Positions 31,268 to 61,604 of a stretch of 64,000 nucleotides of DNA are shown here, piece by piece. The position numbers and the translations under genes are program-made. Location: positions 3,520,001 to 3,584,000 of the forward strand of contig CP182352.1 in assembly GCA_048571215.1 (NCBI GenBank), given 5' to 3'. The DNA comes from Halarcobacter sp. Lineage in GTDB: Bacteria > Campylobacterota > Campylobacteria > Campylobacterales > Arcobacteraceae. Position 1 is the first letter of the stretch; each line of letters starts with the position of its first letter. Under the pieces are notes generated by a model. That model saw only the letters and a program-made list of their open reading frames with translations. It was not told the origin of the DNA and did not search any database.

Positions 31268-31305
31268 AAAAAGGGCTCATCTGTAAAAGATGAGCCCTTT
31301 TTTTT
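31268..31305 (+). terminator. Strong intrinsic terminator with no upstream + strand CDS
   Basis: AAAAAGGGCTCATC-TGTAAAA-GATGAGCCCTTTTTTTT. Confidence 0.8.
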
Positions 31306-36852: not shown

Positions 36853-39254
36853 TGGAAAATAAATTACTATTTTCATTAAAAGAGATTGAATCTATTACAG
36901 GTGGTAAATGGGTTAATTTTGATGAAAAATTAGTTATAGATGAGTTTGTCCATCTACTACCACATATAAAAGACGGGGATCTTTTTATTGTACATTATGC
37001 AAATTGGTATAATAAAAAAACAGATAATGAAAAGGATATTCCAAGAGCTATTAAAAAAGGTGCTCGTGCTTTAATGGTTCAAAAACAAACTGATATATCA
37101 AATTTATCTATGCCTGTTTTAGTAGTAGATGACACTTATTATGCCTTAAAAAATTTAGCTTTGTATGCATCCGAAAAAGCAAGTTCAAAACGAGTTGTTA
37201 TCACAGGAAGTTATGGAAAAACAGGTTTCAAAAATCACTTATATCATTTGATAAAAGATAAAACAAAAGTATTTGCAAGACTTAGTAGTTCAAATAGAGT
37301 TGCTTCAACCTATGGAAACTTAGCTTCCCTAAAAAAAGATACAGAAGTTTTATTAGTTGAAATCCCTATTAGTACTAGAAATAAAACACAAAGACGAGCA
37401 GGTTATGTTAGACCTGATATTTGTGTTATAACTTCAATTGGGCATGAACATATAGAAAGACATGCTAGTGTAAATAATATTATAAAAAAGAAGTGTTCTA
37501 TTGCTGGAACTTTGCCAGAAGAAGGAAAAATAATTGTACCTAGTGATGGAGAATATAGTGATCTTATAAAAAAAGAGTTAAGAAAATATGAAGATATAGA
37601 GGTTTTAACTTTTGGATATAAAGATAATTGTAATGCTCAGTTATTAAGTGTATGGTACGAGAATTATAGATATAAGGTGATTGCTAGAATTGAAGAGGAA
37701 CTTGTGCAATATGAAGTTCCTTTTGTAGATGATCATGCACCTCTTAGTTCAATATGTGAATTATTGTGTATAAAACACTTAGGTTTTGATATATATGAAT
37801 GTGCAAAAAATTATAAAAATATTAAAAATTTTAGAAGTAGTGGGAATTTATATAAATTAGAATATAAAGAAAAAACCTTTTATCTGTATGACCATAGTAG
37901 AAGGGGTGGAGTAGAAGGGTACCGTTCTTTTTTGAAAACAATTAAAAAGATTAATCCTAAGGGAAAAGGAAGAAAAATATTTGTTACTTCTGAGTTTGTA
38001 GATATTCAAGATGGTGAAGAGAAGTTTATAGATAAAAATGAGTTTAAACAATTGATTGAAGAAGCATCAATTGATCAGTTTTATACAGTAGAAAATTTTA
38101 AAGCTGTTCATGAAGATTTAATAAGTGATAAAAAAAAGTGGATACAACACTCTTTAAAAGTTGAAGATTTAAGAGAAAATTTTCTTAATAATATTCATGA
38201 GGGAGATGTTATTTGTATAAAAGCTATATTTGAAAGCTCTCTTCAGCTACTTAGTAAAGATATTTTACACAATTCAGAAATATTAAACTCTCAGCAAGAA
38301 TATAATACAAAGGTTGATTTATTAAAAAACTGTAGGATAATTGATACAAAATATATGGAAAGATTTTATTCTATAATGGACAATGCAAAAAAAGAGAATT
38401 GGGTTAATTATTTTCCTTTTTTATATACCTTCTCTGCCTCAAAAAGTAGAAAAATTTTACTAAATTTTGAAGATGATGTAATGAGTGTTTATTTTTTAAG
38501 ACATCTAAACAGTAGAAGAAGAGAACCTTTTTTACAATTGTATTTTATACCTATACCTTTTAGTTCTCAAAAGTTAAAAAAAGCATTAACCTTAGTTAAA
38601 GAGTTTAATCATGCATCTTCAAATACAATTCTTTGGTGTGATGCAGAGGATATAAAAAGAGTTAGAGAAAATAAAGAATTTGATAAGGTAATAAAATTTA
38701 GATATAAGGAGTCTGAGTTTATATATTCTCCACAAAATTATGAAACTTTATCAGGTAGTAAATACAAATATTTAAGACGACAAATAGGATGGATAAATGC
38801 TTTAAAAGATGTAAAAGTAACCTCTTATAAAAAAGAGCATTTAAAAGACTGTTTATCTTTATATGATGATTGGAAAAAAACTCAAGGTCTTAAATATGAA
38901 TCTATAGAAGATGAATCTTATACAAAACTTTGTCTTTATCATAGTTTTGATTTTCCTAAAGAGATATTAGATGGAATAGTGGTCTTAATAGATAATCAGG
39001 TTAAATCTTTTGCTTTTTATGGAAAAATCACAAATGAAATATCAAATATGTTTATTGCAAAAAGTGACCATAGTATAAGAGGTTTGCAAGTTTTTACAAA
39101 TTATCAAATATTATTAAGATTAGAAGATTACAAATATGCAAATGCTTCAGGAGGAGATTTAAGTAAAGGTTTATACGAATCCAAAAAAAAATTCAGACCT
39201 TCAAAAATGCATAAAATTTATAAAGGGGCTGTTAAATTTAGTTTTTTTAGATAA
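36852..39254 (+). CDS. Divergent MurF-like ligase fused to a DUF2156/MprF-C-like aminoacyltransferase domain
   Basis: ITGSYGKTG, RPDICVITSIGHEH; C-terminal EFIY...LSGSKYKYLR, IRGL, GLYESKKKFRP. Confidence 0.75.
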   Translation: MENKLLFSLKEIESITGGKWVNFDEKLVIDEFVHLLPHIKDGDLFIVHYANWYNKKTDNEKDIPRAIKKGARALMVQKQTDISNLSMPVLVVDDTYYALKNLALYASEKASSKRVVITGSYGKTGFKNHLYHLIKDKTKVFARLSSSNRVASTYGNLASLKKDTEVLLVEIPISTRNKTQRRAGYVRPDICVITSIGHEHIERHASVNNIIKKKCSIAGTLPEEGKIIVPSDGEYSDLIKKELRKYEDIEVLTFGYKDNCNAQLLSVWYENYRYKVIARIEEELVQYEVPFVDDHAPLSSICELLCIKHLGFDIYECAKNYKNIKNFRSSGNLYKLEYKEKTFYLYDHSRRGGVEGYRSFLKTIKKINPKGKGRKIFVTSEFVDIQDGEEKFIDKNEFKQLIEEASIDQFYTVENFKAVHEDLISDKKKWIQHSLKVEDLRENFLNNIHEGDVICIKAIFESSLQLLSKDILHNSEILNSQQEYNTKVDLLKNCRIIDTKYMERFYSIMDNAKKENWVNYFPFLYTFSASKSRKILLNFEDDVMSVYFLRHLNSRRREPFLQLYFIPIPFSSQKLKKALTLVKEFNHASSNTILWCDAEDIKRVRENKEFDKVIKFRYKESEFIYSPQNYETLSGSKYKYLRRQIGWINALKDVKVTSYKKEHLKDCLSLYDDWKKTQGLKYESIEDESYTKLCLYHSFDFPKEILDGIVVLIDNQVKSFAFYGKITNEISNMFIAKSDHSIRGLQVFTNYQILLRLEDYKYANASGGDLSKGLYESKKKFRPSKMHKIYKGAVKFSFFR

Positions 39255-39282: not shown

Positions 39283-40731
39283 ATGATTGTATTAAATAAT
39301 AGTGAAATTGAAGAAGCAACAAAAGGGACTTGGATAAATAAAATTGATGAATTAGATATAAAAAGAGTAATATTTAGTAGTACAAAAATTCAAAATTCAG
39401 ATTTTTATTTCCCATACAATCAAGAAAAATTTCTAGAAGACAGTGAAGAAAATATCAATTTAATAAATAGAGTATTTAAAAAAGGTGCTATTGCTATAGC
39501 TTTACCTAAAAATTCCAAAATAAAAATTGACAAACCAACCCTTCTTGTTGATCATTTAAGAGATTCTTTTAGAGATTTAGCATTAGCTTCTACTAATAAA
39601 ACCCAAGCAACAAAAATTTTAGTAACTGGTTCCTATGGAAAAACAGGATTTAAAAATCAACTTTATACTTTGATAAATGAGTTTAAAAACACTTTTACTT
39701 TTTTAGATTCTGCAAATAAAAGTCTTCCTATATATAAAACTTTAAGTTCAATTCCTAGTGATTGTGAAGTTGCTATAGTTGAAGTTGCTGCTCCTGGCTA
39801 TGAGATATCAAAAAAAAGAGCCAATTATGTGAAACCAGATATTGCAGTTATAACAAATATTGGGCCTGAACATTTAAGACAACATGGTGGTAGTATTGAA
39901 AATGTTATTGAGAATAAATCAAGAGTTGCATATGGACTTAAAGATAATGGTTTGATAATAATTCCTAACCAAAAAGAATATAATACAAAAGAAAAAATGA
40001 CTAAGTATATCCATGAGATAAACCCTACACTAGAAATATTGAGTTTTGGAGAAGATAGTGATAATAATGCATATATTTTAGAAAAAAACTTTTTAGATGT
40101 AGGATGGAATTTAAAAATAAAAATAAATGATAAAGAAATAGATTTTACACTACCTTTTTTAGAAGAGTATTCAGTAAAAGCAACTTTACCTATTTTATTA
40201 GTTTGTGATTACTTAGATTTAGATTTAAAGCAGATTGTTACAAAATATAAAAACTATACACACTTTGCAAGTAGTGGAAACTTTTATAAGGTAACTTCAT
40301 ATGAAAAAACCTTTTATCTTTATGATCAAAGTATTAGGGGAATATTAGATGGATTCAAAGAGACTTTAAAAGTAATTAGTCAAATGAAACCTCAAAAAAA
40401 GGGAAAGAAAATAGCACTTTTTTCTGAGTTTATAAATTTTGATGAGAGTTCGGTTGATGTTGTTAATTTGGATGAGTTTAAACTTTTGTTTAAAAATTCA
40501 GGTTTAAAATCATTATTTACAATCAATAAGTTTTGTGAGCATATAAATGTATTGCATGATAAATCAATATGGAAAGAGCATAGATTTAGTATAAATGATA
40601 TTATGGATAAAGTTATAGCTGATATAGAAGATGATGATATGCTTTTTATTCGTGCGACTCAAGAAAGTAAAGCAGACACTTTAGTAAAAAATATCTTGGA
40701 TAATGCAAGTAGTGTAGAACAATATTATTAA
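39283..40731 (+). CDS. Divergent MurF-like amino-acid ligase
   Basis: VTGSYGKTG, KPDIAVITNIGPEH; paralog of 36852 and 47819. Confidence 0.8.
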   Translation: MIVLNNSEIEEATKGTWINKIDELDIKRVIFSSTKIQNSDFYFPYNQEKFLEDSEENINLINRVFKKGAIAIALPKNSKIKIDKPTLLVDHLRDSFRDLALASTNKTQATKILVTGSYGKTGFKNQLYTLINEFKNTFTFLDSANKSLPIYKTLSSIPSDCEVAIVEVAAPGYEISKKRANYVKPDIAVITNIGPEHLRQHGGSIENVIENKSRVAYGLKDNGLIIIPNQKEYNTKEKMTKYIHEINPTLEILSFGEDSDNNAYILEKNFLDVGWNLKIKINDKEIDFTLPFLEEYSVKATLPILLVCDYLDLDLKQIVTKYKNYTHFASSGNFYKVTSYEKTFYLYDQSIRGILDGFKETLKVISQMKPQKKGKKIALFSEFINFDESSVDVVNLDEFKLLFKNSGLKSLFTINKFCEHINVLHDKSIWKEHRFSINDIMDKVIADIEDDDMLFIRATQESKADTLVKNILDNASSVEQYY

Positions 40732-40749: not shown

Positions 40750-41505
40750 ATGATTAATATAATAACAAACCCTTTTTTAAAAAAAAGATATTTTTCCGAC
40801 TTTTCAAATGAATATATTATAAAAAGTAATACTAGTTTGAGTGGAGCAATTTTATTAATGTTTAGTCTAACAGTAGTTTCATTTGTATTCTTTTGGATAT
40901 TTTCAAATGAACTACTTATAAACAGTACTCCTATAGCTATAGAAAATGTAAAGAATTTTTCTTTTGTAAGTGGAGTGATCTCTTTTATTATAGCTTTTTT
41001 TGCATATTATAAGCCAGGATTATCTCCAATCTTAGCACCCTTATATGCAGTTTTTTCGGGTATTTTTATCTCAGGTCTGAGTTTTGCTGCAGAACAAAAG
41101 TTTCCAGGTATTGCAATGCTAACTGCTGAAGTTACTTTAACAACTTTTATTATTGTTTATATTGGATATAAGATTGGTATTATTAAAGTAACACAAAAAT
41201 TTAAATCTATAGTTTATTCACTTATTGGGATTATATCATTTTTGTATTTATTGAGTTTCATCTTAATGCTTTTTAATACCACTATCCCTTTGATTCACGA
41301 AGCAGGTATAGGTGGAGTAATATGGACTTTTTTTATTATGGCTACAGCTTCATTTCATCTTGCAATAGATATAGATAAGGTAGAAAAATCTAATACTAAC
41401 AAAGGGTATGAAAACTGGAACTTAGCTTTAGGATTAATGGTATCTTTGATATGGCTTTATTTTTCAACTTTAAGATTTTTATCTCGAATTAAGAGTCTAA
41501 AATAG
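40750..41505 (+). CDS. Bax inhibitor-1/YccA-family membrane protein
   Basis: ~7 TMs; SPILAPLYA, LGLMVSLIWLY. Confidence 0.8.
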   Translation: MINIITNPFLKKRYFSDFSNEYIIKSNTSLSGAILLMFSLTVVSFVFFWIFSNELLINSTPIAIENVKNFSFVSGVISFIIAFFAYYKPGLSPILAPLYAVFSGIFISGLSFAAEQKFPGIAMLTAEVTLTTFIIVYIGYKIGIIKVTQKFKSIVYSLIGIISFLYLLSFILMLFNTTIPLIHEAGIGGVIWTFFIMATASFHLAIDIDKVEKSNTNKGYENWNLALGLMVSLIWLYFSTLRFLSRIKSLK

Positions 41506-41582: not shown

Positions 41583-43286
41583 ATGCAAATATTATTTTTG
41601 ACAGATCAAAATATTAATGAAAAATATTCTAAAGTTATTTTACAATATAACAAAGCACTTACTCAAAATATCTTATTAGTTAATTATTCTTCCCTATATG
41701 AAAAACAAAAGTTTATTTATGCAAAAGAGTGTATGGTATTAAATAAAGAGGAAGTGCTTACTGACGTACTTCTTTCCCCATCTATTGTTATTGATTTAAG
41801 TCAAACTTTAGAATATACAATTTTAGAAAAATATTTAAAAACATGTTGGGTAAATGTACAACAAGCATTTTTCCAAAAAGATGAAGCAAAACAAAACTCC
41901 ATTGGAAGCATAGAATCTTCTGCAAAAGTATCAAATTGTATTTGTTATACCAATAATAATGAAGCACCAATATTAAAAGTTATTGAAGATAGTATTAATT
42001 TATCTTCAGACAATAAAATATTAAGCCCTTTTAACACAATTGGATTAATCGAACAAGCTATTACTGAATTTTTTGCAGATATAAATTATTTTAGTCAATT
42101 TGAGTGGCCTAGAAATAAGGATATTTCAAATCATCAAAGTACAGTATTCTTTGTACAATTTGAAGTTTTTGAAAGATTTGGTGATTTTATAGTAGAAAAT
42201 ATTCAATATCAATCTTTAAATTATGAACAACTCATATCTTATAATAATCATTTTCTTTTTAAATATATTGATGATTTATTAGACTTTAGACTTGATAGGT
42301 ATATCCAACAAGTAAAATTTAGAACACATATTATAAAGCTTTGTGAAAAATATAAAATAGATTTAGAACCTTCATATTATAAAACTTTTGTACTTACCAA
42401 AGATAATCATATTGGACTACAACGTAGATATTATGGATCACTTAATAGTAAAAGAGGTATAAATATTATAAATGATAAACATAAGACTAATACTTTTTTA
42501 AGAGAAAATGGTTTTAATGCTAACTTATCTTATGAATATACACTAAAGCAATTACTTGAAGAGGAAGTAATTGATAATTTGCCAATTGATTATCCCCTAA
42601 CTTTAAAACCTACGGATAAAAAAGAGGGTTATGGGGTTGTAACTAATATTCCCAATAAAAAGCGTATGAAAATCTCTATCAAAAAAATGTTAAACTTAGA
42701 GGATATCAATTCAGTTTTAATTGAAGAGTTTTTTGAGGGTGTAACCTATCGAGTATTAGTTGTTAGTGGTGAAGTTACGGCAGTACTTAAATATATCCCA
42801 GCATCTATTTTAGGAGATGGAGAGAGTAGTATTGAAGAGCTTATAAAAAATAAAAATCTTATTTCTAAGTCAAGAGTAAGGATAAATAATGCTCTTAGAT
42901 TAAGTATTTTTAATGATGAAAAAAGATGGGAAACTGTATTACCTGAAGGGAAGAAATATATTATAAGTCATAATTCCCATGCATCAAATGGGGGACAATC
43001 AATAAATGTTACTAATCTTTTTGATGAAAAGTATAAAAAAGTTTGTTCTCAAGCATGTAAAAGCTTAGGATTGAAAATGGCAGGTATCGATATGATAGTA
43101 AACTCAGCTGGAGATTATAGAATTATTGAGATAAATTGTGGTCCTGCTTTGGCAACACATGTTAATCCTAAACATGGCTCTTCTATTAAAACATATACAA
43201 AAGTCTTATATTCACTGTTAGAAGAGGTGGATATTGAAAAAGATGAAAATAGTTATCTAAAAGATTTAGTACCATATCATAAATAA
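41583..43286 (+). CDS. ATP-grasp ligase, cyanophycin synthetase/GshAB-like (paralog 1)
   Basis: INDKHKT, LKPTDKKEGYGV, LIEEFFEG, YRVLVV, GIDM, IIEINCGP. Confidence 0.82.
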   Translation: MQILFLTDQNINEKYSKVILQYNKALTQNILLVNYSSLYEKQKFIYAKECMVLNKEEVLTDVLLSPSIVIDLSQTLEYTILEKYLKTCWVNVQQAFFQKDEAKQNSIGSIESSAKVSNCICYTNNNEAPILKVIEDSINLSSDNKILSPFNTIGLIEQAITEFFADINYFSQFEWPRNKDISNHQSTVFFVQFEVFERFGDFIVENIQYQSLNYEQLISYNNHFLFKYIDDLLDFRLDRYIQQVKFRTHIIKLCEKYKIDLEPSYYKTFVLTKDNHIGLQRRYYGSLNSKRGINIINDKHKTNTFLRENGFNANLSYEYTLKQLLEEEVIDNLPIDYPLTLKPTDKKEGYGVVTNIPNKKRMKISIKKMLNLEDINSVLIEEFFEGVTYRVLVVSGEVTAVLKYIPASILGDGESSIEELIKNKNLISKSRVRINNALRLSIFNDEKRWETVLPEGKKYIISHNSHASNGGQSINVTNLFDEKYKKVCSQACKSLGLKMAGIDMIVNSAGDYRIIEINCGPALATHVNPKHGSSIKTYTKVLYSLLEEVDIEKDENSYLKDLVPYHK

Positions 43287-44267: not shown

Positions 44268-45947
44268 ATGCAAATTTTATTTTTAGTTGAAGATAAAGAA
44301 AATTTATGGGAAGAGTCTCGTATTAAATTAGAGCCCCTTTTAAAATATAATAAGTCTTTATCTCAAAATATTTTATTATCAGATTGTGCTTATATTTCTA
44401 ATGGTTTTTCAAGTAAATGTTTAGTCGTAAATACAAACGAGATGAAAAAACTTGTAATGTTATCACCCTCTTTGATTGTAAATCTTTATAATAAAAAATC
44501 TCAATTGGATATTGAAGCATATTTTCGTGTCAAATGGCCTAGTGCACAAATAGTTTGTTGGAATAAAAAATATTTAGATAAAAGATATTTTGATAATTTT
44601 ATAGATGAAAAAGATATTATAGAATCTATAGCATATACAACAAATTTAGAAGCACCAAAATTTAAATTACTTAGTAAAACTGTTAAAGATGAAGATTTTA
44701 TTGGTCTTATTGAGCAAGCAGTAACTGAGTATTTCTCAGATAGAAACTTTTACAAATCTTTTAAATTACTTCAAACAAGTAAGATTTTAAAAAACCGTAG
44801 TATTATCTTTAAATTTCAATATAAAATTATAAAAGAAAATGCTGATTATACTATTAAAATCAATTCTGTATCTTTACTTAGTTTTTTTGATTTAGTTGAA
44901 TTGGATATAAATTATGTTTATGAGTATTTTGATGAGGTATTAGATTTTAGATATAAATATTATATAGAACAAGTTAAATTAAGACAATATATAGATGATT
45001 TATGTAAAAAGCATAATATTAATCTTGAACCCTCAATTTTTAGAACTTTTGTTTTATCAAAAGATGATAAATTAGGATTACATAGACCATATTTTGGTGG
45101 AGTTAATGACTTAGAAGGTATAAAAACAATTAATGATAAACATTTAACGAATGTTATTTTAAAAGAGAAAGGGTTTAAAACAAATATCTCTTATGAATAT
45201 TCATTAGATGAACTCAATAATGAAAAAGTTATTGAAGAGATTCCTTTGGAGTATCCATTGGTTTTAAAACCAACAGATAAGAAAAAAGGATATGGTGTAG
45301 TAACAAATATTTTAAATCCAGAAAAAATGCTTTTTTCAGTTAAGGAACTAATGAAACTAGGAGATATAAAACCTGTTTTAATTGAAGAGTTTTTTGTTGG
45401 TATGACATATCGTGTTTTAGTAGTTGCAGAAGAGGTAATTGCTGTACTTAAATTTATGCCTACTTATATTGTAGGAAATGGAAAATTAACTATTAAAGAG
45501 TTGATACTATCAAAAAATATACTTTTAAGATCTCGTATTCGTATAAATGATGCCTTAGAGTTGAATCTTTTAAATGATGGGTATAATTATAGTACAATAT
45601 TAGAAAATGGTCATAAATATATTCTTAGTCATAACTCTCATGCTTCAATGGGTGGACAAGCTACTAATGTAACTGATATATTTAGTGATGAATTAAAACA
45701 AATATCATGTGAAGTTACTAAAAGTTTAGGTTTAACACATACAGGAATAGATATGAATGTAAATGCTCAAGGAGATTATCGTATATTAGAAGTTAATTGT
45801 GCTCCAGCATTATCATCACATTTATATCCTAAATATGGAACATCAATTGATACTTATAGCAAAGTTTTAGAAGCTTTTTTTACTCATACTGACTTACAAA
45901 GAGTAGAAAATAAATATCTTCCCGAAATGTTTAAATATCATAAGTAA
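44268..45947 (+). CDS. ATP-grasp ligase, cyanophycin synthetase/GshAB-like (paralog 2)
   Basis: INDKHLT, LKPTDKKKGYGV, LIEEFFVG, GIDM, ILEVNCAP; collinear with 41583. Confidence 0.82.
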   Translation: MQILFLVEDKENLWEESRIKLEPLLKYNKSLSQNILLSDCAYISNGFSSKCLVVNTNEMKKLVMLSPSLIVNLYNKKSQLDIEAYFRVKWPSAQIVCWNKKYLDKRYFDNFIDEKDIIESIAYTTNLEAPKFKLLSKTVKDEDFIGLIEQAVTEYFSDRNFYKSFKLLQTSKILKNRSIIFKFQYKIIKENADYTIKINSVSLLSFFDLVELDINYVYEYFDEVLDFRYKYYIEQVKLRQYIDDLCKKHNINLEPSIFRTFVLSKDDKLGLHRPYFGGVNDLEGIKTINDKHLTNVILKEKGFKTNISYEYSLDELNNEKVIEEIPLEYPLVLKPTDKKKGYGVVTNILNPEKMLFSVKELMKLGDIKPVLIEEFFVGMTYRVLVVAEEVIAVLKFMPTYIVGNGKLTIKELILSKNILLRSRIRINDALELNLLNDGYNYSTILENGHKYILSHNSHASMGGQATNVTDIFSDELKQISCEVTKSLGLTHTGIDMNVNAQGDYRILEVNCAPALSSHLYPKYGTSIDTYSKVLEAFFTHTDLQRVENKYLPEMFKYHK

Positions 45948-45981: not shown

Positions 45982-47787
45982 ATGCAAGCACTAATACTAG
46001 CAGCAGGTACAGGGAGTAGATTAGGTAAATATACAAAAGAAAATACTAAATGTATGTTAGAAGTTAATGGTGAAACTTTAATTAATCAAGCTCTAGCTAA
46101 ATTAAATAATGTAGGTATAAAAAAACTAATAATGGTTGTTGGGTATAAAAAAGATAATCTAATTGAACATGTAGGAAATAGATATAAAAATATTGAAATT
46201 GAATATATAGAAAATCCAATTTATAGTACTACAAACAATATTTATTCTTTGTATTTAGCTAAAGATAAGTTAGCGCAAGATGATACTATATTATTAGAAA
46301 GTGATTTACTTTTTGAAGAAAAAATTCTTTTGAATTTAATAAATGATAAAAGAAAGTCATTGGCAGTAGTGGATAAGTATCAGGCTTGGATGGATGGAAC
46401 AGCTGTTACCTTGAGTGATAATGATGATATTTTAGGTTTTTATGGTAAAAAAGCATTTCAGTTTAAAAATGTTGATAAATATTATAAAACAGTAAATATT
46501 TATAAATTTTCAAAAGAGTTTTCTTTAGATGTATATATCCCTTTTTTAGAAGCATATTCAAAGGCAATGGGTGACAATGAATATTATGAATCTGTATTAA
46601 GAGTAGTTTTAATGCTAGAAGACCAAGAGTTAAAAGCTTTAAAACTTAATGGTGAAAAATGGTATGAGATTGATGATGTACAAGATAAAGCAAATGCAGA
46701 AGTAATATTCTCTAAAAATGCAAAAGATAAATTAAAATTGATTCAAAGTAGATATGGGGGTTATTGGAAGTTTCCAGAGTTAAAAGATTTTTGTTATTTA
46801 GTTAATCCATATTTTCCAACTTTTAAAATGCAAGAGGAGATGAAAGCATATTTTTATGAACTTCTTTCTCAATATCCATCAGGGCAATCAACACTAAGAC
46901 TTCTTGCTGGGAAAATGTTTAAAGTAGAGGCTGAAAATATTTTAGTTGGAAATGGAGCATCAGAGATAATAAGAGGCTTAGGAAATGCAATTGAGGGAAC
47001 TTTTGGTTTAGCTTTTCCAACATTTAATGAATATCCTGAAAGTCTAGGTTATAATAGAATAGTTAAATTTATGCCAAAAAATGACCAATTTTCTTATGAT
47101 ATAAATGATATGATGAATCTAGCTAATAATTGTGACAATCTATTATTAATCAATCCTGACAATCCAAGTGGTAATTTTATATCAAAAGATTTTTTATTAG
47201 AGCTTGTAGAAAAACTTCAAAAAATAAATAAGAATTTAATTTTAGATGAGTCTTTTGTTGATTTTTCAACACAAGGTGAAAAAGAGACTATGATTACACA
47301 AAAAATAATAGATAGATATCCTAATTTAATAGTTATAAAAAGTATATCAAAAAGTTATGGAGTTCCAGGTATAAGACTTGGAGTTGTAGCAACATCAAAT
47401 ATGAAAATTATGTCAGCACTAGAAAAAGAAGTAACTATATGGAACATTAATTCTTATGGTGAATTTTTCTTACAAATTATTGGAAAATATAAAAAAGATT
47501 ATAATGCAAGTTGTGAAGAGATTTCCATGGAAAGAGATAGATTTTATATTAAACTTCAAGAAATCTCCTATCTAAAAGTTGTCTCTTCTCAGGCGAATTA
47601 TTTTTTACTACATGTAAGTGATAAATTTACAGCAACTGAACTCACTGAGTTATTATTATATAAATATGAAATTTATATAAAAGACTTGACAGGAAAAATT
47701 GGTTTTGAAGATAAACAATGTATACGAATAGCTGTAAGAAGTTATGAAGATAATGAGTTTTTAATTGATAGATTAAAAGAGTTATAA
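45982..47787 (+). CDS. LicC-like cytidylyltransferase fused to a class I/II PLP enzyme (CobD/HisC-like)
   Basis: LILAAGTGSRL, TNNIYSL, LLESDL, WYEIDDVQD; NPDNPSG, DESFVDF, KSISKSYGVPGIRLG. Confidence 0.87.
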   Translation: MQALILAAGTGSRLGKYTKENTKCMLEVNGETLINQALAKLNNVGIKKLIMVVGYKKDNLIEHVGNRYKNIEIEYIENPIYSTTNNIYSLYLAKDKLAQDDTILLESDLLFEEKILLNLINDKRKSLAVVDKYQAWMDGTAVTLSDNDDILGFYGKKAFQFKNVDKYYKTVNIYKFSKEFSLDVYIPFLEAYSKAMGDNEYYESVLRVVLMLEDQELKALKLNGEKWYEIDDVQDKANAEVIFSKNAKDKLKLIQSRYGGYWKFPELKDFCYLVNPYFPTFKMQEEMKAYFYELLSQYPSGQSTLRLLAGKMFKVEAENILVGNGASEIIRGLGNAIEGTFGLAFPTFNEYPESLGYNRIVKFMPKNDQFSYDINDMMNLANNCDNLLLINPDNPSGNFISKDFLLELVEKLQKINKNLILDESFVDFSTQGEKETMITQKIIDRYPNLIVIKSISKSYGVPGIRLGVVATSNMKIMSALEKEVTIWNINSYGEFFLQIIGKYKKDYNASCEEISMERDRFYIKLQEISYLKVVSSQANYFLLHVSDKFTATELTELLLYKYEIYIKDLTGKIGFEDKQCIRIAVRSYEDNEFLIDRLKEL

Positions 47788-47818: not shown

Positions 47819-49270
47819 ATGGACGATAGAGTGATGTTATTAAACTCAGATGATATAGCACAAATCACTGGTGGGGAATGGTTTAATTTAAATGAAACAA
47901 TAAAGTTTCATGGAATTAGAGTGAATATTAAACGTTTAGAAAAAAATGATATATGCTTTTGTACAAATCCTGAACAATGGGGTAAAAAGATTGTTAACTC
48001 AGAAAAATCGCTTCAGAAGATTTTTGAAAGAGGAGCTAGTGCAGCTGTAATTGTAAATAAAGAACTTGTAAATAGTATAAAAAAACCATTATTATTAGTT
48101 GAAAATAGTAAAAAAGCTTTAGAAGATATAGCTTTTTATGTTAGAGATAATATTAATATTCCTAGAGTTTTAGTTACTGGTACAGAAGGTAAAACAGGTT
48201 TTAAAAATCAAATTTATTCACTATTGTCAAGACAGATTAATGTACATGCCAAACTCGATAGTTCAAATTTAAATGTACCTATAATGTGCTCTTTGGCAAG
48301 TTTATCGGAGAATGATAAAGTAGAAATTTTAGAAGCATCTGTTGCAGGTCCAAATGTTGGTGTGACTAGAAGCAATATAGTAAAACCAGATATATGTGTA
48401 ATAACACAAGTTGGTATTGCCCATATTACTACTCATGGTTCAGTTGATAATATGATTGAAAATAAAGCATCAATAATAGATGCCCTTAAGAAAGATGGTA
48501 TTTGTATTGTAAATGCAGATAGTGATAATTATGATAAATTAAGAGAAGCTATATATAGAAGAAAATATGTTGATATCAAAACCTTTGGAAGTAGTTCTAA
48601 ATGTAATGCTAGGATAATTGAATCTTCATTTGATAAAAAAGAACTTTTATGGAATGTAAAAGCTAATATAGAGGGGATAGAACTAGAGTATAAAGTTCCT
48701 TTATTGGGTGATTATGTTCCTGTTGCTAGTTTAATACCTTTACTTACGATTCATTATTTAGGCTATGATGTAAAAAAAGCTGCAGCTGATTTTATATATT
48801 TTAAAAGTATGGATACTATGGGTGGATTGAGTGAAATTGTTTGTAAAGATAAAACATTTAGATTTTTTGATCATTCTCATAGGGGTTCACTTTTAGGTTA
48901 TAGCTCTGCTTTAAAAGATTTTGCTTATATGCATCCTAAAAAAAATGGTAAAAAGATTGCAGTTATTGGAAATATGATGAATATAGGAAAAATATCAAAA
49001 AAAGCTCATGCTGATTTAGTACCTTTAATAGAAGAAGCAAAAGTTGAAAGATTATATACCGTAGGTAAATTTGCAAAACCAATACATGAAAAACTTAAAG
49101 ATAAATCAATTTTAATAAATCATGCAGATAAATATCAAGATATAGAAAAACAAATTTTAGCAGATATAGATGATGGCGATGTAATTTTTATGAAAGGTAA
49201 TCATAGAATTTGGTTAAAAGAACTTGCTGCAAAGATATATGATATGGGAGAACGACATGCGATCAGATGA
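47819..49270 (+). CDS. MurF-like amino-acid ligase (least degenerate of the three)
   Basis: VTGTEGKTG, KPDICVITQVGIAH, IAVIGNMMNIG, FMKGNH. Confidence 0.83.
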   Translation: MDDRVMLLNSDDIAQITGGEWFNLNETIKFHGIRVNIKRLEKNDICFCTNPEQWGKKIVNSEKSLQKIFERGASAAVIVNKELVNSIKKPLLLVENSKKALEDIAFYVRDNINIPRVLVTGTEGKTGFKNQIYSLLSRQINVHAKLDSSNLNVPIMCSLASLSENDKVEILEASVAGPNVGVTRSNIVKPDICVITQVGIAHITTHGSVDNMIENKASIIDALKKDGICIVNADSDNYDKLREAIYRRKYVDIKTFGSSSKCNARIIESSFDKKELLWNVKANIEGIELEYKVPLLGDYVPVASLIPLLTIHYLGYDVKKAAADFIYFKSMDTMGGLSEIVCKDKTFRFFDHSHRGSLLGYSSALKDFAYMHPKKNGKKIAVIGNMMNIGKISKKAHADLVPLIEEAKVERLYTVGKFAKPIHEKLKDKSILINHADKYQDIEKQILADIDDGDVIFMKGNHRIWLKELAAKIYDMGERHAIR

Positions 49271-50336
49271 TAATGTAGATATTTTCTTTTTAGGAGATAC
49301 GTATTTTGGCGAATGGCATATGAGACTTCGTGGAAGAAAAGGGCAGTCTAATATTTTAGAGGAAAAAGGTTATTTACATTTTGGTAAAAATTTTGAAGAA
49401 ATACTAAGTGATGGTGATGAGGTTCTTATGAATTTAGAATGTACTATTACCGAAATAGAACCATCACCTTTGAAAGGTACTGAAAAAAAACATCTTTATT
49501 CTGCAAGAGCAGAAGGAACAATTTCAGCACTTAAAAAGTTAAATATAACCACATGTATTTTAGCAAATAATCATGCGGTAGATTATGGTAAGGCTGGACT
49601 TATTGATACTATTACAAATTTAGAAGAAGCTGGTATTAAATATATTGGAGGAGGTAGAAATGAAGCAGAAGCAGCGGCTCCACTAATATTTCAAAAAAAA
49701 CTAGGTGATAAAAAATTCAAAGCAGCTATAGTATCAACATACAATTATGGTGTAGCATCTGATAGATATGGATTTTATGCAAAGGGTGATATCCCAGGAG
49801 TTAATAGAAAAAATTTATCAAAAATTACAGAACAAATTAAAAAAATAAAAGCAAAAGACAATGATATAATGTATATTTTGTCTCCCCATTGGGGACCAAA
49901 TTATGTATGGAGAACTTTTACTCAACAAAAACAAGGTGAAGAATTTATAAGATCAGGTGTTGATTTAATAGTTGGACATAGTGCCCATATGATTCAGGAA
50001 GTTGAATATTATAAAGATAGACTTATAATATATAGTATAGGTAATTTTCTTATAAATGGTAATGGTGAATATAAAAGAAGAAGATTGCCACCTTATAGTT
50101 TTATAGCAAGATTGAATGTGCAAAATATTGATAATACTTTTGTTAAAAAGATCTATTTATATCCTATATTTGTTGATAATATGGCAAGTGATTTTACCCC
50201 TAGATTTGTAGATAAAAAAGAGTTTATTCATGTAAAAGATATATTAAGAAGTCATGAAATAAGTACAGATATATTTGATAATACAGTAATTTTAGGTCAA
50301 GATAAGTTTGGATATTTTTTAGAATATGAAATTTAA
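49257..50336 (+). CDS. CapA/PgsA-family metallophosphoesterase, no signal peptide
   Basis: FLGD, NLEC, ANNHAVDYG, HWG, GHSAH, YSIGNF; GGGAG SD before ATG 49257. Confidence 0.87.
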   Translation: MRSDDNVDIFFLGDTYFGEWHMRLRGRKGQSNILEEKGYLHFGKNFEEILSDGDEVLMNLECTITEIEPSPLKGTEKKHLYSARAEGTISALKKLNITTCILANNHAVDYGKAGLIDTITNLEEAGIKYIGGGRNEAEAAAPLIFQKKLGDKKFKAAIVSTYNYGVASDRYGFYAKGDIPGVNRKNLSKITEQIKKIKAKDNDIMYILSPHWGPNYVWRTFTQQKQGEEFIRSGVDLIVGHSAHMIQEVEYYKDRLIIYSIGNFLINGNGEYKRRRLPPYSFIARLNVQNIDNTFVKKIYLYPIFVDNMASDFTPRFVDKKEFIHVKDILRSHEISTDIFDNTVILGQDKFGYFLEYEI

Positions 50337-50409: not shown

Positions 50410-53400
50410 ATGATTAAGCTAATAATTAGACACACAAATGCTGAGATTGAAGAAAAAGTTGTTGAAGATGGTATGAAGTTTCAACCATTGGAAGGTGAAC
50501 AATTCTACTTCATAGGTTCTGATGGTTATACATTTACTTTATCAGGGAATGAATCTACAGTAAATCTTTCTTTAATGGATGGTAATGAAAGAGTTAGTGT
50601 AAGTCTTGATAACATGGCAGATTTAATAAAAGCTAATAATCCTGGAGATGCATTTGCTTTAACTACAGCACTAGGGGTGTCTTCAACTCCGGATGGTGCA
50701 GCTGAAATAGAACAAGCATTAGCAGACCCAAATTTAGAATCAGCACAAATTATAGATGTATTAAAAGAGAATTTATCAGAAAGTACTGTTGCAGAAAATG
50801 ATGGTGCAATTATTGATAACTTTGGTTCATTGGCAGAAGCTCTTGATGCAGCTGCAGCAGGTGCAATACAGAGTGATCCGACTTTATTTATAGACGAAAC
50901 TAGAGGGCAAGAAGAAACTCCAGCAGATACGGAGAGAGGTGAACGAATCGAGACTGATACCGACACGGATACTGATACAGATACAGATACTGACACGGAT
51001 ACAGATACCGATACTGATACCGACACAGATACGGACACGGACACAGATACAGACACGGATACTGATACAGACACTGACACAGACACTGATACAGATACTG
51101 ACACGGATACAGATACCGACACAGACACTGATACAGATACTGATACCGACACCGACACTGACACCGATACTGATACAGACACAGATACAGACACGGACAC
51201 AGACACGGACACAGACACGGACACAGACACGGATACAGACACGGATACCGATACCGACACTGACACCGATACTGATACAGACACCGATACAGATACTGAT
51301 ACAGACACTGATACAGACACTGATACCGACACAGACACGGATACAGATACTGATACCGACACTGACACAGACACTGATACAGATACAGACACCGATACTG
51401 ATACTGATACCGATACTGACACAGACACGGATACAGATACTGATACCGATACTGATACCGACACGGATACAGATACTGATACCGATACTGATACCGACAC
51501 GGATACTGACACAGACACCGATACAGACACTGATACAGATACAGACACCGATACTGATACTGATACCGACACAGATACTGACACAGACACGGATACAGAT
51601 ACTGATACCGACACGGATACAGATACTGATACTGACACGGATACAGACACCGATACTGATACCGATACCGACACTGATACCGATACAGACACAGATACAG
51701 ATACTGACACAGACACTGATACTGATACAGACACTGATACTGATACTGATACCGACACGGATACAGATACGGACACTGACACAGACACGGACACGGACAC
51801 TGATACAGATACTGACACAGACACTGATACCGACACGGATACAGACACGGATACAGATACGGATACAGATACTGATACTGATACAGATACTGACACGGAT
51901 ACAGATACCGACACGGACACAGACACTGATACAGATACTGACACGGACACTGATACAGATACTGACACAGACACTGATACAGATACAGATACAGATACCG
52001 ACACTGACACAGATACAGATACAGATACTGATACAGATACAGATACAGATACTGATACAGACACGGATACAGATACTGATACCGACACGGATACAGACAC
52101 GGATACAGATACAGACACGGATACAGATACTGATACTGATACAGATACTGACACGGATACAGATACCGACACGGACACAGACACTGATACAGATACTGAC
52201 ACGGATACAGATACTGATACCGACACTGACACAGATACAGACACCGATACTGATACAGACTCTGATTCAGACAGTGATACCGATTCGGATTCAGACTCTG
52301 ACACCGATAGTGATAGTGACTCAGACACTGATTCAGATACCGACAGTGATAGTGATTCAGACACAGACTCTGACTCAGACAGTGATACGGATTCTGATAG
52401 TGACTCAGATTCTGATTCGGATAGTGATTCAGACTCAGATAGTGACTCTGATTCAGATACTGACACGGATACGGACACAGATACCGACACAGACACTGAT
52501 ACGGACGCAGACACTGACACAGACACTGACACGGATACAGATACAGATACGGACACAGACTCTGACTCAGATAGCGATACCGATAGTGATAGTGACTCAG
52601 ACACAGACAGTGATACAGATTCAGACACAGATTCGGATAGCGACTCAGATACAGACTCTGATTCAGACAGTGATACCGATTCGGATTCAGACTCTGACAC
52701 CGATAGTGATAGTGACTCAGACACTGATTCAGATACCGACAGTGATAGTGATTCAGACACAGACTCTGACTCAGACAGTGATACGGATTCTGATAGTGAC
52801 TCAGATTCTGATTCGGATAGTGATTCAGACTCAGATAGTGACTCTGATTCAGATACTGACACGGATACGGACACAGATACCGACACAGACACTGATACTG
52901 ATACGGACACAGACACTGATACCGACACAGACACTGATACGGACACAGACACTGATACCGACACAGACACGGATACCGATACTGATACGGACACAGATAC
53001 GGACACAGACACTGATACAGACACAGACACTGACACGGATACAGATACAGATACGGACACAGACTCTGACTCAGATAGCGATACCGATAGTGATAGTGAC
53101 TCAGACACAGACAGTGATACAGATTCAGACACAGATTCGGATAGCGACTCAGATACAGACTCTGATTCAGACAGTGATACCGATTCGGATTCAGACTCTG
53201 ACACCGATAGTGATAGTGACTCAGACACTGATTCAGATACCGACAGTGATAGTGATTCAGACACAGACTCTGACTCAGACAGTGATACGGATTCTGATAG
53301 TGACTCAGATTCTGATTCGGATAGTGATTCAGACTCAGATAGTGACTCTGATTCAGATACTGACACGGATACGGACACAGATACCGACACAGACACTGAT

Positions 53401-56400
53401 ACTGATACGGACACAGACACTGATACCGACACAGACACTGATACTGATACTGATACGGACACAGACACTGATACCGACACAGACACGGATACCGATACTG
53501 ATACGGACACAGACACTGATACGGACACAGACACTGATACAGACACAGACACGGATACAGATACGGACACAGACTCTGACTCAGATAGTGATAGTGACTC
53601 AGACACAGACAGTGATACAGATTCAGACACAGATTCGGATAGCGACTCAGATACAGACTCTGATTCAGACAGTGATACCGATTCGGATTCAGACTCTGAC
53701 ACCGATAGTGATAGTGACTCAGACACTGATTCAGATACCGACAGTGACAGTGATTCAGACACAGACTCTGACTCAGACAGTGATACGGATTCTGATAGTG
53801 ACTCAGATTCTGATTCGGATAGTGATTCAGACTCAGATAGTGACTCTGATTCAGATACTGACACGGATACGGACACAGATACCGACACAGACACTGATAC
53901 TGATACTGATACGGACACAGACACTGATACCGACACAGACACTGATACTGATACTGATACGGACACAGACACTGATACCGACACAGACACGGATACCGAT
54001 ACTGATACGGACACAGACACTGATACGGACACAGACACTGATACAGACACAGACACGGATACAGATACGGACACAGACTCTGACTCAGATAGTGATAGTG
54101 ACTCAGACACAGACAGTGATACAGATTCAGACACAGATTCGGATAGCGACTCAGATACAGACTCTGATTCAGACAGTGATACCGATTCGGATTCAGACTC
54201 TGACACCGATAGTGATAGTGACTCAGACACTGATTCAGATACCGACAGTGATAGTGATTCAGACACAGACTCTGACTCAGACAGTGATACGGATTCTGAT
54301 AGTGACTCAGATTCTGATTCGGATAGTGATTCAGACTCAGATAGTGACTCTGATTCAGATACTGACACGGATACGGACACAGATACCGACACAGACACTG
54401 ATACTGATACGGACACAGATACTGATACTGATACGGACACAGACACTGATACCGACACAGACACTGATACCGACACAGACACTGATACCGACACAGACAC
54501 GGATACCGATACTGATACGGACACAGATACGGACACAGACACTGATACAGACACAGACACTGACACGGATACAGATACAGATACAGATACGGACACAGAC
54601 TCTGACTCAGATAGCGATACCGATAGTGATAGTGACTCAGACACAGACAGTGATACAGATTCAGACACAGATTCGGATAGCGACTCAGATACAGACTCTG
54701 ATTCAGACAGTGATACCGATTCGGATTCAGACTCTGACACCGATAGTGATAGTGACTCAGACACTGATTCAGATACCGACAGTGACAGTGATTCAGACAC
54801 AGACTCTGACTCAGACAGTGATACGGATTCTGATAGTGACTCAGATTCTGATTCGGATAGTGATTCAGACTCAGATAGTGACTCTGATTCAGATACTGAC
54901 ACGGATACGGACACAGATACCGACACAGACACTGATACTGATACTGATACTGATACGGACACAGACACTGATACCGACACAGACACTGATACTGATACTG
55001 ATACGGACACAGACACTGATACCGACACAGACACGGATACCGATACTGATACGGACACAGACACTGATACGGACACAGACACTGATACAGACACAGACAC
55101 GGATACAGATACGGACACAGACTCTGACTCAGATAGTGATAGTGACTCAGACACAGACAGTGATACAGATTCAGACACAGATTCGGATAGCGACTCAGAT
55201 ACAGACTCTGATTCAGACAGTGATACCGATTCGGATTCAGACTCTGACACCGATAGTGATAGTGACTCAGACACTGATTCAGATACCGACAGTGATAGTG
55301 ATTCAGACACAGACTCTGACTCAGACAGTGATACGGATTCTGATAGTGACTCAGATTCTGATTCGGATAGTGATTCAGACTCAGATAGTGACTCTGATTC
55401 AGATACTGACACGGATACGGACACAGATACCGACACAGACACTGATACTGATACGGACACAGATACTGATACTGATACGGACACAGACACTGATACCGAC
55501 ACAGACACTGATACCGACACAGACACTGATACGGACACAGACACTGATACCGACACAGACACGGATACCGATACTGATACGGACACAGATACGGACACAG
55601 ACACTGATACAGACACAGACACTGACACGGATACAGATACAGATACGGACACAGACTCTGACTCAGATAGCGATACCGATAGTGATAGTGACTCAGACAC
55701 AGACAGTGATACAGATTCAGACACAGATTCGGATAGCGACTCAGATACAGACTCTGATTCAGACAGTGATACCGATTCGGATTCAGACTCTGACACCGAT
55801 AGTGATAGTGACTCAGACACTGATTCAGATACCGACAGTGATAGTGATTCAGACACAGACTCTGACTCAGACAGTGATACGGATTCTGATAGTGACTCAG
55901 ATTCTGATTCGGATAGTGATTCAGACTCAGATAGTGACTCTGATTCAGATACTGACACGGATACGGACACAGATACCGACACAGACACTGATACTGATAC
56001 GGACACAGACACTGATACCGACACAGACACTGATACTGATACTGATACGGACACAGACACTGATACCGACACAGACACGGATACCGATACTGATACGGAC
56101 ACAGACACTGATACGGACACAGACACTGATACAGACACAGACACGGATACAGATACGGACACAGACTCTGACTCAGATAGTGATAGTGACTCAGACACAG
56201 ACAGTGATACAGATTCAGACACAGATTCGGATAGCGACTCAGATACAGACTCTGATTCAGACAGTGATACCGATTCGGATTCAGACTCTGACACCGATAG
56301 TGATAGTGACTCAGACACTGATTCAGATACCGACAGTGACAGTGATTCAGACACAGACTCTGACTCAGACAGTGATACGGATTCTGATACCGATTCAGAT

Positions 56401-58101
56401 TCAGATAGTGACACCGATTCTGATAGCGATAGTGACACAGATTCAGATTGTGATACAGATGTTGATGCAGATAAACCAATTGCAGATATTGAAGTTGAGT
56501 ATGAAAAAACAGTTACCGTAAATGAAGTTTGTTCTACTTCACAAAATCTAGGTAATTTAGCTGCTTATTTAGATGGTATGAATAATGTAAATGCAAATGA
56601 AGTTGTTGATTTAGCAAAAGATCAAAATGGTAACCCACAACAAGATCAATACAACTTAGAATTGACTTCATTTGGAGATGGAGATTTAGCATTATATGAT
56701 AATGAATCTAATCAAAATGAAACTAGAGATATCAATGATATTGATTTAAATGATGTTACACCATTTGATCCATCAAATGCAGAAGTAGTAAATAACACCA
56801 TAAATCATACATACAATATGACATCAAATGAAGTTATTTTTGAAGGTGATATTGTTCAAAATGGTAATGTAATAGGAACATCAGACAATGATGTGATTAT
56901 TGTAAAAGGTGAGGTTCAAGGTGGTTCAAATGTTAATGCAGGTGCTGGAAATGACCTTATTGCAATAGTAGGAAATATTGGAGAAAATCAACCAGCAATT
57001 GATGGGGATAGTGGTACAGACATACTATATCTAAGTAAACCTGCATCTAATTATGAGTTTTTAGATATCCACTTCCATGACAATTTAGATGGACATATTT
57101 TAGATAAAGAGACTCAAAGTGTATTAACATTTAATAACATAGAAGGAATTGCCTTTGGTGATGGTTCTGGGGTAAATTGTAAAGTAAATACATCAACAAG
57201 CTATCAATACAATGTAAGTATAAGTGCTGCATTAACTGATATTGATGGAAGTGAAACTTTATCTGTAGCAATATCTGGAGTGCCAAATGGTGCTACACTA
57301 TCAAGTGATACCTATACATTAATTGATAATGGAAATGGAAATTGGACAGTTGAAGTACCAAATGGAGATGTATCTATAGTTGATGATATTACTATGAATG
57401 TTCCATCAGATATAGGAGATTTTAACCTTGAAATAACAGCAAGAGCAACTGAAATCAATGATAATGATGGTACTGATTATGCAGAAACAACAGATAGTGA
57501 TTTTGTAACTGATGATATCGATCCAGATACAGAAATCAATAAATTTGACTTAGTAGGAAATGTAACTACTGGTTCAGGAGATGATACAATTAATGTGTCA
57601 GATGATATATTCTTAGCTAATGTTGATACTGGAGCAGGAGATGATACAATCAATGTAGGAGATGATATAGGATTATTTACTTCAATAGATACCGGAGCAG
57701 GAGATGATACAATTAATATTGGTGACAATATTAGTTATTCAGCTCAAATTGATATGGGTGATGGTATTGATACCCTAAGTTTAGATGATGATATTGATTT
57801 ATCTGATATAGCAAAAAATGTTGATAATGTTGAAATAATTGATTTGGATAATGATGAAGACCAAGATCTAGAAATAGATTTAGATTCAATTATCGATTTA
57901 ACTGATGATGATAATGATTTAGTTGTTATTGGTGATAATGGTGACAAAATTGACTTTAATGATTCTGGTTGGGAAAAAGGCGATAGCACAAAAACTGTTG
58001 ATGGACAAGATGGAGAGTTTACTGAATACACAAATACAAACAATCCAAATGTATCAATTTTAATTGATAATGACATTGACGTAGATGATGATGACATTTA
58101 A
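50410..58101 (+). CDS. Giant Asp-Thr/Asp-Ser repeat surface protein, putative T1SS substrate (LapA-like)
   Basis: No Sec signal; AAAAG at aa 147-151; ~1830-aa TD/SD tract; DIDGSETL Ig-like module; RTX-like G(A/S)GDDTIN repeats; acidic C-terminus; T1SS genes downstream. Confidence 0.88.
50953..56448 (+). repeat. 6-bp (Thr/Ser-Asp) coding tandem repeat with ~500-bp higher-order units
   Basis: (ACN GAY)218 at 50953-52260, then 9 copies of an SD-rich block starting 52261, 52657, 53161, 53659, 54163, 54697, 55207, 55753, 56251. Confidence 0.97.
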
Positions 58102-61593: not shown

Positions 61594-61604
61594 TTAGTGA
61601 AGAT

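Follow-up and report, generated by a model that had tools for sequence, protein, structure and literature searches.

A cytidylyltransferase-PLP enzyme fusion of Halarcobacter sp. as a predicted source of CMP-activated aminoalkyl phosphate for an AnkX-type Fic protein

The stretch of DNA analysed here, called the window, comprises 64,000 nucleotides of the Halarcobacter sp. contig CP182352.1 (positions 3,520,001 to 3,584,000). Its subject is an intact, ATG-started open reading frame (ORF) at 45982..47787 of the forward strand, which encodes a 601-residue fusion of a cytidylyltransferase with an enzyme dependent on pyridoxal phosphate (PLP). The gene lies in a run of 13 same-strand genes (31475-58101), with gaps of less than 80 bases, that continues through to an adhesin. 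In order, these encode an OmpA-ankyrin protein, an AMMECR1-like protein with a kinase domain, a putative metalloprotease, a MurF-LPG_synthase_C fusion, a MurF, a BaxI-like protein, an ATP-grasp ligase, a Fic protein, a second ATP-grasp ligase, the cytidylyltransferase-PLP fusion, another MurF, a CapA protein and a repeat protein of 2563 residues; a two-component pair, a TolC and a C39-ABC transporter follow (Table 1). The sole strong terminator-like hairpin (31268-31302) precedes the cluster, and a promoter scan was at chance (133 matches versus 140.6 in shuffles).

Both halves of the fusion keep their active-site motifs. The best PDB matches of the N-terminal half were PntC-AEPT (6PD1, 59.5 bits) and LicC (1JYK, 53.1 bits), and the nucleotide-binding/metal motif of the cytidylyltransferase (PF12804; GxG(T/S)R...K) is present as G9-x-G11-S-R13, K23, D108, E229 and D231, with Thr in place of the motif Pro. 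In the C-terminal half, N394-P395, D422, K457 (in SKS), R465 and R582 make up an intact set of PLP motifs, invariant in all 26 fusions aligned. The AlphaFold model, built from a 26-sequence alignment, has two well-folded domains with a mean pLDDT of 90.3. The PLP half is of class I/II and not DegT-like, and the fusion stays below the curated cut-offs for CobD (TIGR01140, 164.7 vs 290.55 bits) and HisC (TIGR01141, 143.8 vs 276.55 bits). The first-pass annotation, made from the sequence alone, had described a LicC-like domain with an intact PLP domain; the two domains and the PLP motifs stand as described, but by the scores above the N-terminal domain is as much PntC-like as LicC-like.

Two glutamates of the cytidylyltransferase, E106 and E203, are invariant in the 26 fusions and align with Glu104 and Glu196 of PntC, where LicC has Asp105 and Asp192 (for E203 a one-residue shift was required in the phmmer alignment; the alignment with the PntC of a related genome, G027, was direct). 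According to the accessible text of PMC6697681, these PntC glutamates contact the primary amine of the substrate and LicC has Asp there. A primary-amine product also fits the surroundings of the fusion homologs, since an amine-modifying enzyme is encoded within 3 kb at 71 of 80 loci: 54 have an opine dehydrogenase, 14 an OCD/mu-crystallin-type reductase and four a SAM methyltransferase, with two of these enzymes at one locus. These 80 loci were kept from 130 confirmed genome loci, mostly of Bacteroidota with some Bacillota and Campylobacterota and several on short contigs, and their neighbours were called by tblastn with Pfam-confirmed seeds. Note that N-carboxyethyl-ethanolamine phosphate is a constituent of O-antigens, for which no supporting paper was found. 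CDP-choline is unlikely because a search of the genome gave no N-methyltransferase close to those adjoining other fusions (best match E 1e-6, 26%). The glutamates and the amine-modifying neighbours thus support the earlier proposal of a CDP-aminoalcohol with a primary amine rather than CDP-choline, and it is supported that the fusion provides a CMP-activated primary aminoalkyl phosphate.

As to which amine is made, the best solved relative of the PLP half is 6OUX, the structure of SMUL_1544 (180 bits, 32-36% identity), followed in the PDB by CobD with 89 and HisC with 67 bits. Among the sequences at hand the order is the same, with 181 bits for SMUL_1544, 85 for the genome's own CobD, 71 for its own HisC and 57 for a HisC-like enzyme of the related genome G006. 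Moreover, a genome copy in a cobamide cluster, adjoining a reductive dehalogenase, cbiB and cobU, agrees at 392 of 392 residues with a database entry that bears the name 'norcobamide biosynthesis serine-O-phosphate decarboxylase'. In a quick tree of 31 rows this copy nests within the fusion family, and the own CobD, the own HisC and the enzymes of G006 and G016 fall outside. Ethanolamine, serinol and aminopropanol had initially been left as options; CobD and HisC-type enzymes being far more distant than SMUL_1544, these are narrowed to CDP-ethanolamine, which, judged from sequence, is probably the product. The decarboxylation may come first, as in SMUL_1544, or the CMP transfer, as in FrbH.

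Genome-wide scans agree with the earlier statement that the window holds no licA, licD or PEP mutase, in that the sole LicD, the sole choline-kinase-like gene and both PEP_mutase-family (PF13714) matches lie outside it. Of the two PF13714 matches the strong one is PrpB, and the second (34 bits) resembles PanB, to judge by its N-terminus. A PEP mutase was not detected anywhere in the genome, and a phosphate ester is therefore expected as the product rather than a phosphonate. The choline-kinase-like gene was rejected as a LicA: it adjoins a PnuC-type transporter, is below all cut-offs and has thiamine-kinase-like families among its matches. One sulfatase/EptA-like gene and three CDP-alcohol phosphotransferases are all far from the cluster.

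The candidate consumer of the fusion product is the Fic protein encoded upstream. It keeps all four CMP-binding residues of AnkX (D21, R23, Y34 and R37) and the catalytic H220, D224, N226 and R228. In the part of PMC4454073 available to us, AnkX-type proteins are those with a Fic domain and at least three of D28, R30, Y41 and R44, which places the window Fic among them. AnkX was its only solved-structure match by sequence, and by fold its model matched eight AnkX chains, with E-values of 4e-11 or lower and query TM-scores of 0.71-0.76, the next match being at 4e-3. It scores 112.6 bits against the AnkX effector model NF043028, whose cut-off is 1400, and matches only the Fic family in Pfam, without ankyrin repeats or the AnkX insertion domain. 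In the head-group pocket F98, E217 and D256 match F107, E226 and D265 of AnkX, and I227 stands in place of G236. The idea that this exchange makes the pocket smaller was dropped, because the column varies in both tiers of Fic proteins.

A profile search with the Fic gave 331 representatives at E<=1e-30, from which 156 proteins were taken forward for a tree, 147 of them covering the domain. Of the 40 top-scoring rows, the window protein included, 39 group on one branch (support 99) that is separate from the AnkX-like rows with ankyrin repeats, and Mur or YheCD ATP-grasp domains are present on 19 of the 27 top-tier proteins scanned. In the accessible sections of PMC4454073, one AnkX-type protein is said to be misannotated as MurF and no pathway is proposed for it. 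The profile matched eight of the 184 genomes of the family and four of the 401 of our order sample, and with G539 the clusters of 11 genomes were read. A metagenome scan with the Fic returned one short locus, and a search for plasmid relatives gave nothing real, with one partial match. Note that in contig C7 of G017 (L011, L012) there are two AnkX-type Fic genes in a single cluster, one fused to MurF, the other stand-alone, inverted and accompanied by an ATP-grasp and a MurF gene.

The strongest support for the first-pass proposal is that several routes to a CMP-activated aminoalkyl phosphate or phosphonate adjoin this one CMP-binding transferase. In 10 of the 11 Fic-positive Campylobacterota genomes the cluster encodes a cytidylyltransferase together with a PLP enzyme that forms an amine. 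These pairs are of four kinds: the present fusion in the window genome (G000) and G539, a HisC-like enzyme in G006 and G016, a class V enzyme in G002, G017, G019, G364 and G479, and the full set of PEP mutase, phosphonopyruvate decarboxylase (Ppd), PntC and aminoethylphosphonate (AEP) transaminase in G027. LicD is absent from all 11 clusters (a LicD profile, run over 357 ORFs of the clusters and one control region, matched in the control region only). Among the homologs of the fusion, 62 of the 80 loci have a LicD, one (L025, which lacks LicD) has an AnkX-like Fic, and none has both. This survey, a check that the first pass had suggested, supports its proposal that the Fic takes LicD's usual role: it is AnkX-type and occupies LicD's usual place. 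We consider it likely, from these sequence features, that the Fic is a transferase for a phospho-aminoalkyl group, and we are fairly confident that it uses the product of the fusion.

The repeat protein that ends the run contains an unbroken Asp-X tract of 1834 residues and nonamers like those of RTX proteins, and is likely, by its sequence, to be a type I secretion substrate. A long Asp-Thr/Asp-Ser tract is encoded in 10 of the 11 Fic genomes and adjoins the cluster in eight. A pattern of ten D-(T/S) units matched eight family genomes out of 184. Seven of these, every one Fic-positive, have 106-1226 matches, and G012 has three. G364, G479 and G539 also have both Fic and tract, the tract of G539 (1074 residues) lying directly before the cluster. 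The complete genome of G012 keeps an orthologous adhesin, with a tract of 32 residues, and the AMMECR1-like gene (72%), and between these two the Fic, cytidylyltransferase, PLP and Mur genes are absent. The place that the AnkX-type module takes in relatives is filled in G012 by one ORF of 195 residues (L126:16789-17376) that is XopAH/AvrB-like, of the Fido fold and below cut-off. The AMMECR1-like/six-hairpin domain (window 32822-34651) is 72-83% conserved in the Fic clusters. Because Fic-less genomes keep the AMMECR1-like gene, we regard its product as the core companion of the repeat protein, and the module of Fic, donor and ligases as tied to long tracts. The domain also persists, at 48%, in minimal loci where its sole companions are a short D-T protein and a type I exporter (L163:15609-18936).

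Taken together, we propose the following scheme. The fusion would convert phosphoserine and CTP into CDP-ethanolamine and CO2. The Fic would then release CMP and form Thr/Ser-O-phosphoethanolamine on the adhesin tract in the cytoplasm, as AnkX transfers phosphocholine onto a protein serine (PMC7228754, accessible part). The ligases would add amino acids to the free amine or to Asp side chains, and the decorated adhesin would be exported by type I secretion. That the tract is the final acceptor, modified in the cytoplasm before export, is the reading we favour, with somewhat less assurance than the identity of the nucleotide. Cyanophycin synthetase is an example of an enzyme that adds amino acids to Asp side chains; whether the free amine is acylated here by the ATP-grasp, Mur-type and tRNA-dependent ligases, either at the nucleotide stage or once on the protein, we judge to be an even question. 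The evidence for product, consumer and acceptor is shared, and for the three jointly, with a chemistry predicted from sequence, the chances seem about balanced. More tentatively still, the non-effector clade of AnkX-type Fic proteins might be the transferase of an undescribed protein-modification system, which would have its own CMP-activated aminoalkyl donors from swappable modules (phosphoethanolamine, aminoethylphosphonate and perhaps serinol phosphate), would modify hundreds of Thr/Ser residues of a tract, would extend the amines by Mur and ATP-grasp ligases and would release a bottle-brush protein by type I secretion.

Several observations weigh against this scheme, and they are taken here with the alternatives on which they bear. 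The PLP tree is a quick one only, with SMUL_1544 on a long branch (support 93), and CobD fits the model of the fusion as well as 6OUX does (rmsd 2.3 vs 4.2-4.5 Å), the fold being blind to the choice between phosphoserine and phosphothreonine. Three Campylobacterales fusions of 40% identity (L146-L148, in G332, G238 and G536) adjoin PEP mutase and Ppd, and L146 scores 265 bits to the PLP half of the fusion, SMUL_1544 only 181; because of these, the fusion family may include transaminases. The PLP domain could accordingly be imagined as a transaminase or a phosphothreonine decarboxylase, the donor as CDP-serinol or CDP-aminopropanol, and the Fic and adhesin steps as the same. HisC-like and class V transaminase-like enzymes do occupy this slot in relatives, a transaminase is expected in the phosphonate clusters of the 40%-identical fusions, and Cj1437 forms serinol phosphate (PMC12409886, accessible text). 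Against this, the PLP half is much closer to the serine-phosphate decarboxylase than to the HisC-like enzyme of G006 or to the genome's own HisC and CobD, and a CobD-like gene is present separately in the genome, next to a cbiB-like one; we hold such a donor to be unlikely. A nucleoside diphosphate (NDP) amino sugar would be a highly improbable product: the N-terminal half does match sugar-1-phosphate nucleotidyltransferases, but weakly (20-25 bits in the PDB, compared with 53-60 for PntC and LicC), the PLP half is not of the DegT-like type, and among those cluster proteins that were scanned there was neither a sugar dehydratase nor a glycosyltransferase.

CDP-ethanolamine used by the Fic could also end on a small peptide, carrier or glycan that the Mur and ATP-grasp ligases assemble, with the AMMECR1-like protein acting on the repeats. 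The association with the repeat protein is tighter for the AMMECR1-like gene than for the Fic: this gene accompanies a repeat protein without Fic in G012 and in the complete genomes G504, G474 and G380, the latter three having short tracts (138 residues in G504) beside this gene only. Tract DNA matched in nine of the 401 order genomes, only four of them with Fic and five without, among these G494, a long tract with no Fic found on a contig that ends 750 bases past the AMMECR1-like gene, inside the cluster, and G044, a 135-base match with neither Fic nor AMMECR1-like gene. In G200, conversely, there is a Fic with no tract or cytidylyltransferase found (290 contigs, one ending inside the Fic-MurF gene). 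The genomes surveyed are kin, and the co-occurrence counts are not independent. The many ligase domains on top-tier Fic proteins tie these to ligases first, and a preprint, in its accessible part, reads ATP-grasp/Mur phosphonate clusters, which were not matched to the present ones, as making phosphonylated peptidoglycan. On the other hand, the target of AnkX is a protein, the module is present with long tracts and absent with short ones, and a single closely spaced run leads up to the adhesin; we regard a non-adhesin acceptor as rather unlikely. It is less probable again that the product feeds the LicD-domain protein encoded elsewhere in the genome, or that free ethanolamine phosphate amidates Asp carboxylates through an ATP-grasp enzyme, the Fic being otherwise engaged. 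Most fusion homologs do pair with LicD, and the LicD here is part of an ATP-grasp-TPR-LicD fusion beside a large Ig-domain protein, found, like the cytidylyltransferase-PLP fusion, only in G000 among 25 genomes of the genus; Cj1438 amidates a carboxylate using ethanolamine phosphate (PMC12409886, as accessible). However, this LicD is 1.28 Mb away and adjoins its own HIGH-family cytidylyltransferase, the Fic keeps a full CMP-binding site, and direct amidation has no need for the cytidylyltransferase found in 10 of the 11 clusters.

The locus of that LicD (C1:2279793 onward in G000; L023:9794-20000, L154) also encodes a TIGR03032/DUF4915 protein and a Thr/Ser-rich FG-GAP/Ig-domain protein of about 3000 residues, and would seem to be a LicD-based counterpart of the Fic system.

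Table 1. Features of the fusion and of its gene cluster in the window.
Feature	Position	Strand	Remarks
AMMECR1-like/six-hairpin domain (aa 1-610) fused to protein kinase and Sel1 repeats	32822..35890	+	
MXAN_6640-like putative metalloprotease	35887..36852	+	below cut-off; homologs recur in related clusters
MurF-like ligase fused to LPG_synthase_C (aminoacyl-tRNA transferase-like) domain	36852..39254	+	
MurF-like ligase 2	39283..40731	+	
Bax-inhibitor-1-like membrane protein	40750..41505	+	common to the Sulfurimonas version of the cluster
ATP-grasp ligase 1	41583..43286	+	cyanophycin-synthetase/GshF-like C-terminal domain, below cut-offs
Stand-alone AnkX-type Fic, 316 aa	43311..44261	+	
ATP-grasp ligase 2, paralog of ligase 1	44268..45947	+	directly upstream of fusion, 34-base gap
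Fusion, N-terminal half	aa ~1-245, nt 45982-46716	+	PntC/LicC-type cytidylyltransferase; Pfam NTP_transf_3/NTP_transferase
Fusion, C-terminal half	aa ~246-601	+	fold-type-I PLP domain of SMUL_1544/FrbH-like group; Aminotran_1_2 match at residues 309-598
MurF-like ligase 3	47819..49270	+	directly downstream of fusion, 31-base gap
CapA/PGA_cap metallo-enzyme	49224..50336	+	weak MslH epimerase match; start may be ATG 49257, where the L025 homolog starts
Repeat protein, 2563 aa	50410..58101	+	five GxGxD-type nonamers near C-terminus
Asp-Thr/Asp-Ser tract, aa 183-2016	50956..56457	+	917 Asp, 591 Thr, 324 Ser
Type I secretion genes	59752..63734	+	TolC-like 59752-61593, C39-ABC transporter 61605-63734

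Among known systems, the fusion shares its architecture with FrbH of the FR-900098 pathway, which, going by its description, has the same chain order of a cytidylyltransferase followed by a class I/II PLP domain. The natural substrate of that enzyme, 2-amino-4-phosphonobutyrate, is a carbon isostere of phosphoserine. FrbH, with its N-terminal cytidylyltransferase and C-terminal PLP decarboxylase, cytidylylates and then decarboxylates this compound (accessible parts of PMC8976061 and PMC9088020); here, in contrast, no PEP mutase was found, the predicted product is a phosphate ester and not a phosphonate, and the setting is a surface protein, not an antibiotic. SMUL_1544 (6OUX), and Cj1436 by its function, carry out the reaction predicted for the PLP half, but they are stand-alone enzymes that feed a cobamide linker or a capsule amidation, whereas here the enzyme is fused to a cytidylyltransferase. 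PntC-AEPT Tde1415 (6PD1/6PD2) and LicC (1JYK) are of the same cytidylyltransferase family, the fusion sharing the Glu/Glu amine pocket of PntC. In Tde1415 the second domain is a class V transaminase that acts on a phosphonate, no PEP mutase pathway to supply a PntC with aminoethylphosphonate was found in this genome, and LicC has Asp/Asp and needs LicA and LicB, unlike the fusion, which has E106/E203 and no LicA nearby. The window Fic shares with AnkX of Legionella the CMP-binding segment and the Fic core, with all key residues kept; it differs in its 25% identity, its separate, well-supported clade, the frequent fusion of that clade to Mur or ATP-grasp ligases, an own donor and a likely self target.

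Serine-rich and Ser-Asp repeat adhesins have dedicated cytoplasmic glycosyltransferases (GtfA/B, SdgA/B). They are alike in being dipeptide-repeat surface proteins encoded with modifying enzymes and an exporter; here, however, the exporter is a type I system, the repeats are Asp-Thr-rich, and the predicted decoration is a phosphodiester-linked amine rather than sugars. In G494 the gene after the AMMECR1-like gene (L168:14245-15015) has a weak match, below cut-off, to Asp2 of the accessory Sec system, and related hydrolase domains are present in other clusters, which is a possible parallel to the serine-rich-repeat systems. Full-text searches, with most subscription papers outside their coverage, found neither a description of the fusion family as a CDP-ethanolamine synthase nor an account of an AnkX-type Fic that comes with a donor pathway of its own and targets a repeat protein. 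The fusion adds a member to an architecture already known, that of FrbH, and the surrounding system would be a new variation on AnkX-type chemistry, by which the bacterium likely decorates its own surface protein. The fusion family would supply a kinase-free bacterial route to CDP-ethanolamine. AnkX is the characterised CDP-donor Fic and acts on host proteins; a biosynthetic clade with its own donor would extend this chemistry to free-living bacteria. If the scheme is true, the Fic becomes a candidate enzyme for the attachment of phosphoethanolamine and phosphonate to proteins, with G027 making a phosphonylated protein, and kilobase Asp-Thr tracts are given a reason.

Finally, the fusion is common: all 7997 candidates scored had E<=1e-3, and the best 120, besides the query, were 70-83% identical. 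Within its own family it is found only in G000 among the 184 genomes, and the fusion or its PLP half in 10 of the 401 genomes of the order sample. Its closest relative, at 82% identity, comes from Sulfurimonas, and that genome shares the Fic, ATP-grasp, MurF and CapA genes as well (63-80% identity), which suggests that the cassette moved between lineages. The long ORFs on the opposite strand and in another frame over the tract (window 50526-56521) are by-products of its six-base repeat.

The other settings of fusion homologs are varied. In four Campylobacterota loci (L026, L027, L031 and L032, two with LicD) a SAM methyltransferase gene follows the fusion within 20 bases, a possible de novo CDP-choline route without choline uptake. 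In the L146-L148 clusters PEP mutase and Ppd are accompanied by APS-kinase-like, radical SAM and formyltransferase genes, and the fusions there are possibly class I/II enzymes that form aminoethylphosphonate. Plasmid fusions of 31-36% identity stand in DXR-containing, FR-900098-like clusters of Priestia and Bacillus (L160:1534-9638, L161:2443-11741), with acetyltransferase and ATP-grasp genes and, in Priestia, a weak N-hydroxylase match. The displayed stretches of these plasmid clusters carry no annotated PEP mutase, and the clusters are candidates for a phosphate-ester analogue of fosmidomycin such as fosfoxacin or fosfocytocin. Rahnella and Erwinia plasmids also carry fusions (about 31%), and in Rahnella (L159:5980-13788) the genes after the fusion encode a CDP-alcohol phosphatidyltransferase, HAD phosphatases and an ATP-grasp protein, a neighbourhood that suggests a third kind of consumer.

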